From an uncultured delta proteobacterium (lineage in GTDB: Bacteria > Myxococcota_A > Polyangia > Polyangiales > Polyangiaceae): 64,000 nucleotides of DNA. Position numbers and translations under genes: made by a program. Below the pieces are notes generated by a model that was not told where the DNA came from, ran no database searches, and saw only the letters and a program-made list of their open reading frames with translations. The stretch lies in NCBI GenBank assembly GCA_963782055.1, contig CAWAIF010000003.1, forward strand, positions 5,472,001 to 5,536,000. The letters run 5' to 3'. Shown here piece after piece: positions 50,475 to 54,497 of the stretch; the first letter of the stretch is position 1, and each line of letters starts with the position of its first letter.

Positions 50475-52235
50475 TCACACCGTGTGGATGTGGAACCCGC
50501 AGTGGGTGGCGGGGGTGCGACCCTGCAGCTCGCAGAGGACCTCCTCCGGGAGCGGGAACCAGCGCAGCGCCTCCACGTCCTTCGGCAGCGGCGGGTCGGC
50601 GGTGGGGTCCCAGCCCAAGAACTCGCCCTCCGCCTGCTCCACGATGCGCGCCGCCTCCTCGAGGTAGCCCGGCAGCGCCCACTCCGGCTCGGTCTCGTGG
50701 CGGGAGCGGTACTCCAGCTTGCCGGAGCGGTAGGAGAGATCGGCGAGGCGCTTGGTCGGCTCCGGACGCGCCTTGCGTGGGCGCCACTGCGCCGTCGCGA
50801 GGTCGAAGCGGTAGTGCGGCAGCAGCTTGTAGCCGTGACGCGCGACGAAGTGCACCGCGTCGAGCACGAACTGGAACACCGTCTCGGAGATGAAGTAGTT
50901 GAAGTTGACGCGCACCCACCCGGGCTTGACGCCCTCCGACCCGGCGAGGATCGCGCAGGCGAACTGCCGCGACGTGGTGAGGTCGATCCCCAGCAGGCGG
51001 TGGCCGTAGGGGCCGGCGCACGAGCAGCCGCCGCGCGCCTGGATGCCGAAGAGATCGTTCAGCAGGGAGACGACGAAGTTGTGGTGGAGCGCGCCCTCGC
51101 CGTGGAGCACCACGAAGGAGACGATGGAGAGGCGCCACGCGTGCTTGTTGCCCAGGATGCGGATGTTGGGGTTCTGGCCCCACGACTCGACGGCGCGGTG
51201 GATGTACGACTCCTCCTTCTGCCGGATGAGATCGACGCCGACGGCGTCCTTGAGCTGGAACACCAGACCCGCGCGGATGGACTCCAGGATGGCGGGGGTG
51301 CCACCCTCCTCGCGGTGCACCGGGTCGCTCAGGTACCGGTGCTCGCCGGCGCTGACGTAGGCGACGGTGCCCCCGCCGGGGAGCGAGGGCACGCGGTTCT
51401 TGAGCAGGTGCCGCTTGACGACGAGCACGCCGGGCGTGCCCGGCCCGCCGATGAACTTGTGCGGCGAGAGGAAGACGGCGTCCTTGTAGGCGAGGTGGGC
51501 GTCCTCGCCCTCGCCCACCGGGTTCATCTCCATCTTCACGTACGGGCCGGCCGCGGCGAAGTCCCAGAAGGCGAGGGCGCCGTGCTTGTGGAGCAGCGTG
51601 GAGATGGCGAGCGTGTTGGAGCCGATGCCGGTGACGTTGGACGCCGCGGAGAAGCTGCCGATCTTGAGGGGGCGGTCCGCGTAGGCGACGAGCTCGCGCT
51701 CCAGGTCGGCGAGATCGATGTGGCCGTCGGCGTCCTCGTCGATGACCACCACGTCGGCGATGGACTCGCGCCACGGCAGCTCGTTGGAGTGGTGCTCGTA
51801 CGGACCGATGAAGATGACCGGTCGCTCGGCGTCGGGGATGTGCCCGGAGAGACCGTAGCGGGAGTCCAGATCCGCCGGCACGCGCAGGTTGAGGATGTCG
51901 ACCAGCTTGTTGATGGCGCTGGTGGCGCCGGAGCCGCAGAAGATGACGAAGTCGTCCGGGCCGCCGCCGACGGCGTCGTGGACGACCTTGCGCGCGTCCT
52001 CGCGGAAGCGCGTCGTCTGCATGCCCGTCTGCGAGGTCTCGGTGTGGGTGTTGGCGTAGAAGGGCATGACCTCCTGACGCATGTAGTCCTCGATGAAGGC
52101 GAGCGAGCGACCGGACGCGGTGTAGTCGGCGTAGGTGACGCGGCGGGGGCCGTACGCCCCGGACAGGACCTGGTCGTCGCCGATGATGGCGTTGCGGATG
52201 GTCTCGATGAGGCGCTCGCGGGGACCGGTGGGCAT
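50475..52235 (-). CDS. Class V PLP-dependent aminotransferase (cysteine desulfurase-like)
   Basis: 'YADYTASGR', 'EHHSN', 'SPHKFIGGPG', 'RGGCSCAGPY'. Confidence 0.92.
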   Translation of the reverse strand: MPTGPRERLIETIRNAIIGDDQVLSGAYGPRRVTYADYTASGRSLAFIEDYMRQEVMPFYANTHTETSQTGMQTTRFREDARKVVHDAVGGGPDDFVIFCGSGATSAINKLVDILNLRVPADLDSRYGLSGHIPDAERPVIFIGPYEHHSNELPWRESIADVVVIDEDADGHIDLADLERELVAYADRPLKIGSFSAASNVTGIGSNTLAISTLLHKHGALAFWDFAAAGPYVKMEMNPVGEGEDAHLAYKDAVFLSPHKFIGGPGTPGVLVVKRHLLKNRVPSLPGGGTVAYVSAGEHRYLSDPVHREEGGTPAILESIRAGLVFQLKDAVGVDLIRQKEESYIHRAVESWGQNPNIRILGNKHAWRLSIVSFVVLHGEGALHHNFVVSLLNDLFGIQARGGCSCAGPYGHRLLGIDLTTSRQFACAILAGSEGVKPGWVRVNFNYFISETVFQFVLDAVHFVARHGYKLLPHYRFDLATAQWRPRKARPEPTKRLADLSYRSGKLEYRSRHETEPEWALPGYLEEAARIVEQAEGEFLGWDPTADPPLPKDVEALRWFPLPEEVLCELQGRTPATHCGFHIHTV

Positions 52236-52299
52236 GGCGCTGCAAAGCATACTCCTGTACGTGTTGGGTTGCCTCCCCGGTCAAGAGCCGGTGAGGTAG

Positions 52300-52452
52300 T
52301 CGCGGCCGGTCCGGGAGGAGCGCCCAGCGTCCTCCGTGCCTAGAGCACCTCGAGGGGACACTGCGCCCTCCCGGACCGCGTCGGGATGCAACGTCCGACC
52401 GGAAGTCGCGCCACGAGCGCCAGTAACAGGAGCGATGAGTGCATCTCGGCTG
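52300..52452 (+). ncRNA. Putative IS110 bridge RNA (ends approximate)
   Basis: Two stem-closed internal loops whose segments match the flanks and the element ends. Confidence 0.75.
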
Positions 52453-52475
52453 GCCGTTTCGAAAGGAGGTCCGTC

Positions 52476-53732
52476 GTGGATGAAGGCAAATTGTTCGTGG
52501 GCATCGATTGGGGCACGGGCACCCACCAGGTGTGCGTGCTCGACAGCGACCGCAAGGTCATCGACCAGCGGCAGGTGGAGCACGACGGCGAAGCCATCGC
52601 CGCGATGGCCGACCGGCTGCTGACGCTGGCGCACGGTGACGCGACCAGGCTGGCCGTGGGCATCGAGACGCCGTGGAGCGCGGTCGCCGAGGCGCTGCTC
52701 GAGCGCGGCATTCATGTATTTTACATCAACCCCAAGCAGCTCGATCGCTTCCGCGATCGGCACACCGCCTCCGGCGCCAAGGACGACCGGCGCGACGCCT
52801 TCGTCATCGCGGACTCGTTGCGGACCGACGCCCACGCCTTCCACCAGATCAAGGTCGGCGACCCGCGCCTGGTGGAGCTGCGGGAGCTGTCGCGCATGAA
52901 CGACGAGCTACGGAAGGACGTACACGCGCTCGCCGGCCGTCTCCACGCGCAGATGGTCCGCGTCTTCCCGCAGGTCCTCGAGCTCGGCTCCGTCTACACC
53001 GACCTTTGGCTGCTGGCCTTGCTGAGCCGTGCGCCGACGCCGGAGCAGCTCAAGGAGCTGAGCCTCGCGAAGGTCCGCGTGGTGCTCACCACCCACCAGG
53101 TCCGCAAGTGGACGCCCGAGCAGGTGTGCGCGACGTTGCGCAAGAAGCCGCTGACGGTGGCGCCCGGCGTCATGACCGCGGCGGCCGCACACGTCCGCGC
53201 GTTGCTGCCGCGACTGCTGCTGCTTCACCAGCAGATGCGCGAGACGCGCGCCGCGATGCGCGGGCTGCTCGACGACCTCGCCAAGCCCTCCGAGGAGCCA
53301 GACAAAAATGAGCATCGTGACGTGACCATCCTTCGATCCTTGCCGGGCGTCGGAATGATTGTCGCCGCCACGATGCTCACCGAGGCGCCTGAAGCGCTCG
53401 CCGCTCGAGACTATCACCGGTTGCGCCTGCTCTGTGGGACTGCGCCGGTGACCCGACAGAGCGGAAAGTCGTGGTCCGCCTCGATGCGCCGCGCCTGCAG
53501 CCGCCGGCTGCGGGCGGCCGTCTTCCACATGACCAACACCCTCATCGCCCACGACCCCCGCGCCAAGGCGCTGTACGCGGCGCACCGCGGTCGCGGGCAC
53601 ACCCGAGGGCACGCGCTCCGAGCCGTCGCAGACCGCGCGCTGGCCATGCTGGTGGCGATGCTCCGCGACGGCAGGGTGTACGACCCGAGCCGCCGCGGCG
53701 TACCCGCCGCGCCTGTTGCCGCATCTTCCTGA
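52476..53732 (+). CDS. IS110-family recombinase/transposase
   Basis: DEDD residues 'GIDWG', 'GIET', 'KDDRRDA'; 'SLPGVG'; catalytic-Ser region 'RQSG'; AGGAGG RBS. Confidence 0.96.
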   Translation: MDEGKLFVGIDWGTGTHQVCVLDSDRKVIDQRQVEHDGEAIAAMADRLLTLAHGDATRLAVGIETPWSAVAEALLERGIHVFYINPKQLDRFRDRHTASGAKDDRRDAFVIADSLRTDAHAFHQIKVGDPRLVELRELSRMNDELRKDVHALAGRLHAQMVRVFPQVLELGSVYTDLWLLALLSRAPTPEQLKELSLAKVRVVLTTHQVRKWTPEQVCATLRKKPLTVAPGVMTAAAAHVRALLPRLLLLHQQMRETRAAMRGLLDDLAKPSEEPDKNEHRDVTILRSLPGVGMIVAATMLTEAPEALAARDYHRLRLLCGTAPVTRQSGKSWSASMRRACSRRLRAAVFHMTNTLIAHDPRAKALYAAHRGRGHTRGHALRAVADRALAMLVAMLRDGRVYDPSRRGVPAAPVAASS

Positions 53733-53801
53733 CGAAATCGGGCTTGCCAACACACCGGAAGTCCCCTCGCCGGCTCGCCGCTCACCGGGCATACTCGCGC
53801 C

Positions 53802-54497
53802 ATGCGCCGCGCCGTCCTCCCGCTCCTGTTCGCCGTGGCCGTGGCCGCGTGCCATGGCTCCAGCACCGACTCCACGCCGGCCCCCCCCGCGAGCGCGAGC
53901 GCGCCTGCGCCGGGCGAGACAGCCCCGCCGCCGTCCGCCACGGCCGCGCTCGCGCCGCCCCCCCTGGCGTCGGCCTCCGCCGCCGACACCTCGGCTGTGG
54001 GCGCCGCGGCCGGCGCGACCGGCGCTGTGGGCGCCGCGGCCGGCGCGACCGCCCACGCGGGCGCGCCCACGACGACCGCCGCGGCCCCCTCGGCGCCGCT
54101 CGTGCCGGGGACCGGGTCGCACTTCGAGGGCAAGCACTTCACCCTCGACGTGCCCGCGCCGGCCGGGTGCGCGAAGGGCCAGCCGTGCTCCTTCGTGGCG
54201 AAGCTCACCGCCACCGGCGCGTTCCACGTCAACAAGGAGTACCCCTACAAGCTGACGATGACCGCCGTGCCCGGGGTGGAGTTCCTCGGCAACGACGTCG
54301 CCGCCCGCACGGTCTTCTCCAAGCACGGCGGCGACTTCACCGTCTCCGGCGAGAAGTCCGGGACGATGGTGGTGCGCTACCAGCCGAAGGTGTCCGGCCC
54401 CGTCAACTTCACCGGCACGCTCAAGCTGAGTGTGTGCAACGCCAGCACGTGCCTGATGGACCAGGCGCCCGTGAAGGCGTCGGTCCCCGTCCGTTGA
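53802..54497 (+). CDS. Hypothetical lipoprotein
   Basis: 'VAAC' lipobox, Ala/Pro linker with a 30-bp duplication, 'FHVNKEYP', 'LSVCNASTC'. Confidence 0.8.
   Translation: MRRAVLPLLFAVAVAACHGSSTDSTPAPPASASAPAPGETAPPPSATAALAPPPLASASAADTSAVGAAAGATGAVGAAAGATAHAGAPTTTAAAPSAPLVPGTGSHFEGKHFTLDVPAPAGCAKGQPCSFVAKLTATGAFHVNKEYPYKLTMTAVPGVEFLGNDVAARTVFSKHGGDFTVSGEKSGTMVVRYQPKVSGPVNFTGTLKLSVCNASTCLMDQAPVKASVPVR

Follow-up and report, generated by a model that had tools for sequence, protein, structure and literature searches.

A single-copy IS110-group element with a predicted two-loop bridge RNA and a likely CC core in an uncultured delta proteobacterium

Results

The element, its recombinase and its ends

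The window analysed here, a 64,000-nucleotide stretch of contig CAWAIF010000003.1 from an uncultured delta proteobacterium (genome G000), carries an intact, single-copy IS110-group element that combines a DEDD/serine recombinase with a predicted two-loop bridge RNA and, very probably, a CC core. The whole element spans 52254..53764 on the plus strand (1,511 bp including both CC cores) and is, biologically, an ordinary insertion sequence. G000 holds no other IS110 copy, and neither a second copy, a remnant nor a circle junction of the element was found in this genome. Contigs of the X1 sequencing run covered two internal pieces of the element without differences and spanned neither junction.

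The open reading frame at 52476..53732 (+), which begins with GTG behind a Shine-Dalgarno-like AGGAGGT (52464..52470, +), encodes an intact IS110 recombinase of 418 amino acids. Both Pfam domains, PF01548 and PF02371, are present and the protein scores 166.9 bits against NF033542 (cut-off 140), in line with the IS110 assignment made in a preliminary description of this DNA. Residues D11, E64, D104, D107 and S329 are intact and align to D11/E60/D102/D105/S241 of IS621. The best structural matches of the AlphaFold2 model (mean pLDDT 84.7) were IS621 and ISCro4 (E 1.5e-10, TM 0.57–0.60, 17–18% identity), and the recombinase is accordingly predicted to fold like IS621. A PDB search with the single recombinase sequence yielded no match, nor did a search for related loci with the protein alone. 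Two named matches among the 120 homologues listed bear a Polyangiaceae or Polyangiales label, which makes a myxobacterium the likely host.

The element starts with the left core CC (52254..52255, +), followed by the right donor TGTACG (52256..52261, +), and terminates with the left donor (53754..53762, +) and the right core CC (53763..53764, +). Long terminal inverted repeats are absent, with CC at both ends and only a 7-bp subterminal inverted repeat (52261..52267, +, pairing with 53747..53753, +) that had been recognized before. This repeat falls in the register of a 3-bp repeat present in 17/20 elements, and one relative, L027, retains 5 bp of it with compensatory changes. According to the searchable text of PMC11208160, the left end exceeds the right end and harbours the bridge RNA in the IS110 group, whereas IS1111-group elements have their RNA in a long right end and carry 7–17-bp subterminal repeats. 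Here, the left end measures 220 nt versus 30 nt for the right end and contains the predicted bridge RNA upstream of the gene, as expected for the IS110 group; the 7-bp repeat is the one feature that would just fit the IS1111 group, at the lower limit of its range.

The linear form of the element contained no recognizable sigma-70 promoter or terminator. In the predicted circle, the -35-like box TTGCCA of the right end (53744..53749, +), also seen earlier, would come to lie 17 nt from the predicted -10 box TACGTG (52258-63) that TGTACG provides. This -10 box is weak, without the final T. The same 17-nt distance between a TTG and a TAC box was obtained for the predicted circles of 18/20 elements.

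The predicted bridge RNA and its guides

The region 52300-52460 is predicted to fold more stably than its shuffled counterparts (z = -4.39; 0/200 shuffles as stable), and both loop stems named in the preliminary description form in this fold. A 5' stem-loop (52267..52301, +), which is a ViennaRNA prediction only, precedes the target-binding loop domain (52308..52377, +; outer stem 52308-18/52367-77, inner hairpin 52336-48) and the donor-binding loop domain (52380..52450, +; outer stem 52380-90/52440-50, inner hairpin 52408-20). In a consensus fold of 33 sequences, 22 of the 31 pairs showed double-sided changes. Rfam gave no match above threshold. The layout inferred previously, with the target loop first and the donor loop second, is borne out by four guides that match the ends and flanks of the element.

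In the target loop, the left target guide (positions 0–9; 52326..52335, +) is identical to 52246-55 at 8 of 10 positions, differing at position 3 (a predicted G:T wobble) and position 5 (a mismatch). CCAGCGT, which had been read at 52324-30 as a partial match to the left flank, is indeed there, but the extension of the guide to 52335 was missed. The right target guide (52351..52357, +) consists of 5 nt plus the core-pairing GG and is complementary to 53763-69 at 7/7 positions; it is followed by the handshake guide AC (52358..52359, +), which complements donor GT at 53761-62, occurs as AC in 43/44 clusters of relatives and has the same geometry as positions 81-82 of IS621. Taken together, guide and handshake make up CGAGGGGAC (52351-59), the reverse complement of 53761-69, as had been described.

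In the donor loop, the left donor guide (52398..52407, +) reproduces 53754-63, i.e., nine donor bases plus the first core base. The reported identity of ACCGGAAGT (52398-406) with 53754-62 is thus right as far as it goes, while the match truly measures 10 nt rather than 9. The right donor guide (52423..52430, +) complements the core and TGTAC with one extra A, predicted to bulge, and the adjoining handshake guide AG (52431..52432, +) complements target CT at 52252-53; ACAGGAG, quoted at 52426-32, is found there. When the RNA region was shuffled 20,000 times under a Markov model, exact junction matches as long as these (10, 9 and 7 nt) coincided in 1e-4 of the shuffles, although each alone is unremarkable (1.8%, 6.6% and 16.7%, respectively). 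For IS621, PMC11208158 describes a left target guide of 9 nt, a left donor guide of 8 nt that extends to the first core base, and a handshake dinucleotide behind each right guide; once strands have been exchanged, these dinucleotides pair with positions 6-7 of the opposite substrate. With CC as the core, our element fits this plan, since its left donor guide stops at the first C and its right target and right donor guides are followed by the AC and AG handshakes, respectively.

Relatives of the element

An order-wide DNA search identified relatives in 11/401 genomes, G000 included. A donor-loop pattern scan, which fixed bases of the RNA loop and not of the DNA junctions, returned 119 loci from 25/64 parts of the genome collection, 55 of them without recombinase homology. 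We kept 78 loci with pattern plus recombinase match, added 3 pattern variants, and left out six re-fetched loci (L026, L040, L041, L042, L068, L146), the near-identical extra copies L134, L147 and L160, and L036, L059, L069 and L156 as unparsable, resulting in a final set of 68 loci in 44 clusters. Junctions were anchored at TGTAC (left) and at the donor-guide match ending in AGT (right); L028 and L048, being incomplete copies, were excluded from the left-guide representatives. The relatives share 37–63% protein identity with the recombinase studied here; they are kin and C-rich, so that shuffle tests overstate significance. A search for closer relatives with the extra A in the donor loop returned only the known G320 copy, while the matches in G467, G632 and 11 viral sequences were without IS110 homology.

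Several relatives merit description in their own right. In a genome of the same genus, L022:1745-1915 (G003:C330) comprises the left end, the target loop and half of the donor loop at 83.5% identity, with no recombinase thereafter; its left target guide is unlike that of our element and matches its own flank at 10/10 positions, representing natural retargeting. G414:C1 contains six full copies along with >25 short stretches that match the initial 100-210 bases of the left end and are possibly non-autonomous derivatives. C homopolymers are the targets of the elements in 13/44 clusters (e.g., L030, L058, L073, L080), given a right target guide made up of G alone and a left guide whose end is a run of C. 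L320 (NC_000914.2:164600-167217), annotated in two pieces on the Sinorhizobium fredii plasmid pNGR234a, is a clade member with CC at both junctions. In the right part of L028 and L031 the recombinase stops early and is followed by unrelated DNA, apparently other mobile elements.

Evidence for a CC core

CC precedes TGTAC in 57/62 loci and follows AGT in 40/41; both junctions carry CC in 34 of the 37 loci for which both ends are available. Outward of CC the sequence varies on both sides, the base before the left CC being C, T, A or G, and copies within four multi-copy clusters share just 2 bases on one side. The loci without CC (L039, L065, L078, L105 and L137 on the left, L035 on the right) for the most part look like wrong anchors or decayed copies. 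We also considered a CT core, but AGTC-CT is absent from the right junction of our element and of most relatives.

Three independent lines of evidence point in the same direction: empty repeats, end-to-end joins and the 17-nt promoter spacing of the predicted circles. Empty repeats of the composition left flank + CC + right flank account for 7/8 cases in G412 (1 shorter by one base), 2/3 in G413 (1 longer) and, in a tally covering G414, 45/55 (3 shorter by one base, 7 other); in G153, this pattern had 0 matches. The relatives with empty repeats share the left-guide register of our element, and the G414 element has a base other than C at position 7, likewise the case here.

Among metagenomes, right-end/left-end joins gave 119 matches. 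None of the 47 with an extra base had IS110 homology, as opposed to 3/72 without an extra base, all reading AGT-CC-TGTAC. In one of them, L210, the join runs into a full bridge RNA and the start of a recombinase; as a recombinase match is missing upstream, we take it as a donor-type join rather than a proven circle. L186 and L259 represent one and the same sequence, with no bridge RNA after the join. At ~401-416 of this sequence, a recombinase 3' end plus right end is joined via CC to TGTAC, from which a perfect hairpin starts that ends in the reverse complement of this motif; this is perhaps an insertion into a donor-like site.

Guide covariation and handshakes

The association of loop 1 with the flanks, on which the preliminary description had staked its reading, held among the relatives: the left target guide matched its flank at 5.3 of 7 positions (best of two registers; 38 representatives) versus 3.3 after shuffling, and the right target guide at 4.67 of 5 versus 2.25 (24 representatives). 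In L321 and L322, a change at the donor end is matched by a compensatory change in the right donor guide. Guides, targets and donors thus covary across orthologues, and a broad clade has this arrangement in common.

The handshake bases behaved likewise. The first base of the donor-loop handshake pairs with target position 7 in 36/38 representatives, including all 5 non-G cases, which was reached in 0/100,000 permutations, kin not being independent. For all 21 representatives with both ends, more pairs are predicted after than before exchange (gain 2-4); for our element, the number rises from 2 to 4, in line with handshake guides that pair with the other substrate after exchange.

The left guide was less uniform in register. 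Among the 38 representatives, the best offset was +1 (the IS621 spacing) in 13, 0 (as in our element) in 10, -1 in 4 and +2 in 3, with 8 weak or tied. Hairpin parsing and errors in C runs may account for part of this spread, but left guides that match cleanly at 7 of 7 positions exist both at offset 0 (L027, L089, L103) and at +1 (L116, L138, L142).

The insertion site and its neighbourhood

The reconstructed target is composed of left positions 0-7 (52246..52253, +), whose positions 6-7 (CT) partner the donor-loop handshake, the core, and right positions 10-14 (53765..53769, +), both flanks being host DNA. It agrees with the guide-specified target at 13/15 positions, consistent with the imperfect target proposed before; the differences fall on left-target positions 3 and 5, and the core is free of mismatches. 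With a CC core, G000 offers one 15-of-15 site, three 14-of-15 sites and 47 13-of-15 sites. The small number of strong sites indicates that the target is not a large repeat family in this genome. The 15-of-15 and the three 14-of-15 sites are unoccupied; the former (G000:C3:1335334-1335348, minus strand) lies in coding sequence by appearance.

The element is flanked by a gene for a class-V aminotransferase (cysteine-desulfurase-like) and a divergent gene of no known family. A TATGCT -10-like box at 52246-52251 of the window (minus strand) overlaps the left target, 10 nt before the aminotransferase ATG at 52235, and the divergent gene, whose ATG is at 53802, has a CATACT box 6 nt upstream of it at 53790-53795 (plus strand). 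The aminotransferase promoter may have been split from its upstream part by the insertion. None of 40 relatives offered a clean empty site; in G003, ~1.8 kb and other genes separate the two neighbouring genes. A frame test on 15 reconstructed sites identified none with a clear gene running across. In the genomes and contigs examined, we found no empty site, circle, RNA or second copy belonging to the element itself.

Discussion

Proposed mechanism and alternative readings

By analogy with IS621, excision would leave the right and left ends joined through a single CC, and the circle junction thus created would set TTGCCA 17 nt from the -10-like box, thereby switching on the bridge RNA. The target loop would engage a site of 15 bp, with the circle junction held by the donor loop; top strands would be cut 3' of CC and swapped, whereupon the AC and AG handshakes would pair with positions 6-7 of the other molecule. 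As the number of Watson-Crick pairs would increase from two to four, insertion would be favoured over excision. In our element target and donor share a T at position 7, so directionality would rest on position 6, unlike in IS621.

A variant of this scheme retains the same anatomy but assumes top-strand copy-out/paste-in with the left target guide only aiding binding, or else a copy that is now dormant. We assign it an appreciable, though minority, probability. Preprints report top-strand-only excision and integration as well as half-match reactions (10.64898/2026.08.31.748434; 10.1101/2025.10.25.684509), and it is the left-guide register that slides among relatives whereas the top-strand guides do not. 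Such sliding, we infer, would suit the top-strand-led models put forward in these two preprints. Furthermore, both mismatches of our element fall on the left target, better sites in G000 are unoccupied and the element is present as a single copy. On the other hand, the left guide tracks its flank well above shuffles, the structural study of IS621 reports two-strand exchange (PMC11208158), and the intact reading frame, catalytic residues, ends and -35 box speak against dormancy. Either version of this variant would be compatible with the CC core.

Another possibility is that the core lies one base to the left, with TC at both junctions within TCC (yielding the same products) or with TC on the left, CC on the right and an empty site one base shorter. 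Since position 7 is a T in target and donor alike, the two junctions here have TCC rather than CC alone in common (TCCT in L027), and the cut cannot be placed from this one sequence; the CC register of our element is likely, carried over as it is from relatives. IS621 has one unpaired base between left target guide and hairpin (PMC11208160), a spacing that would put TC into the core slots of our element, and the extra A in the donor loop could be taken in the same sense. Nevertheless, we consider a TC core improbable: relatives of the same register (L054 group, L089, L049) have empty repeats of CC length in 45/55, 7/8 and 2/3 cases versus 3, 1 and 0 shorter ones, and the base before the left CC varies in a way not expected of a shared core base.

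The CC core is to be preferred even more clearly over the GT core of the preliminary description, which invoked AT in place of GT at the site and an element start near 52249 (left boundary 52249-50) and which we regard as barely tenable: the right target guide plus AC does form an exact 9-nt complement starting with GT, the left donor guide contains GT, and IS621 tolerates GT and AT cores in tests (PMC11208158), but the proposed left-core position reads GT in 2/37 relatives as opposed to CC/CC in 34/37, three bases assigned to the element vary between copies (the element beginning at 52254), the empty repeats of relatives fit a CC core instead of the empty site predicted from GT, the corresponding circle junction would have a -35/-10 spacer of 20 nt versus 17 nt for CC, and the AC and AG pairings agree with those expected of handshake guides as published (PMC11208158, PMC13626964). 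The GT pairing is that of the target-loop handshake with donor positions 6-7, and the extra 'GT' and 'AG' matches are handshake guides; the supposed AT mismatch vanishes, both junctions carrying CC. In practical terms, guides designed on the GT model would be off by two bases at the right end and by five at the left end.

Comparison with known systems

Beyond the single element, there is a somewhat less than even chance that it represents a bridge-recombinase clade, widespread and uncharacterised, which depends on a CC core and recognizes it through a remodelled pocket (W/R/H versus G63 of IS621), with the cut register set by top-strand guides and handshakes alone and the left target guide sliding by a base. 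We infer that W67, in place of the T9-reading G63, accounts for the CC preference. The core dinucleotide restricts where bridge recombinases act, IS621 requiring T as the second base and being weaker at GT, and two guides no longer cross-reacted once given orthogonal cores (10.64898/2026.04.29.721476). An orthogonal enzyme would be available from a natural CC-core clade that has longer native guides and full handshakes; if the above holds true, CC-core enzymes would be orthogonal to CT-core IS621/ISCro4 and open CC sites to editing, and the clade would lend natural support to top-strand-led integration.

We found no description of a CC-core bridge system in the IS110 literature searched. Supplementary Table 1 of Durrant et al. 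(PMC11208160) lists an unnamed 'DRFRDR..GAKDD' IS110 clade (13 rows, no ISfinder name) with the same RuvC-domain motifs; among its members is the split copy on Sinorhizobium plasmid pNGR234a, both of whose junctions carry CC. The searchable text of that paper contains no core, guide or target for these proteins, and the searchable part of its supplements does not contain the clade's donor junction. A preprint in which guides were called for 32,190 bridge RNAs (10.64898/2026.10.21.760802) may well hold this clade in its set.

IS621 of E. coli (Durrant et al. 2024, PMC11208160; Hiraizumi et al. 2024, PMC11208158) is the closest well-described counterpart. It shares with our element PF01548 + PF02371, the DEDD and serine residues, a long left and a short right end, the order of 5' stem-loop, target loop and donor loop, a left donor guide whose last base corresponds to the first of the core, and a pair of handshake dinucleotides with a net gain of two base pairs after exchange (from 1 to 3 in IS621; PMC13626964); its structures 8WT9/8WT6 were also the best fold match (E about 2e-10). 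The promoter that IS621 forms across the junction would have a counterpart in the predicted circle of our element. Differences concern the core, CC instead of CT, with a second-base T that is 'almost invariant' in IS621 relatives (PMC11208158); protein size (418 versus 326 aa, 17–18% identity); the position corresponding to G63, occupied by W in our element and by W/R/H in 30/30 homologues; the right target guide, which naturally extends 2 bases beyond the core in IS621 versus 5 here; and the subterminal repeat (2–3 versus 7 bp). The IS621/ISCro4 subgroup is characterized by a CT (N-T) core, a ~315–330-aa protein and G63 reading T9 (PMC11187229), and our element falls outside it by virtue of its CC core, its 418 aa and its W at the position aligned to G63. 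ISCro4/IS622 (10.1101/2025.05.14.653916; PDB 9T56) resembles it in fold, bridge-RNA logic, 14-bp sites and handshake guides, and differs in its CT core (GT also used) and in sequence, with 17–18% identity. ISPpu9 (PMC12288879), compared here by its description only, likewise belongs to the IS110 family and has an invariant dinucleotide other than CT at its two ends, at which circles are formed, but this dinucleotide is AG and the element carries extra small-RNA modules. With non-CT cores already known from ISPpu9, our element is likely a modest CC-core variant of the established bridge-RNA mechanism.
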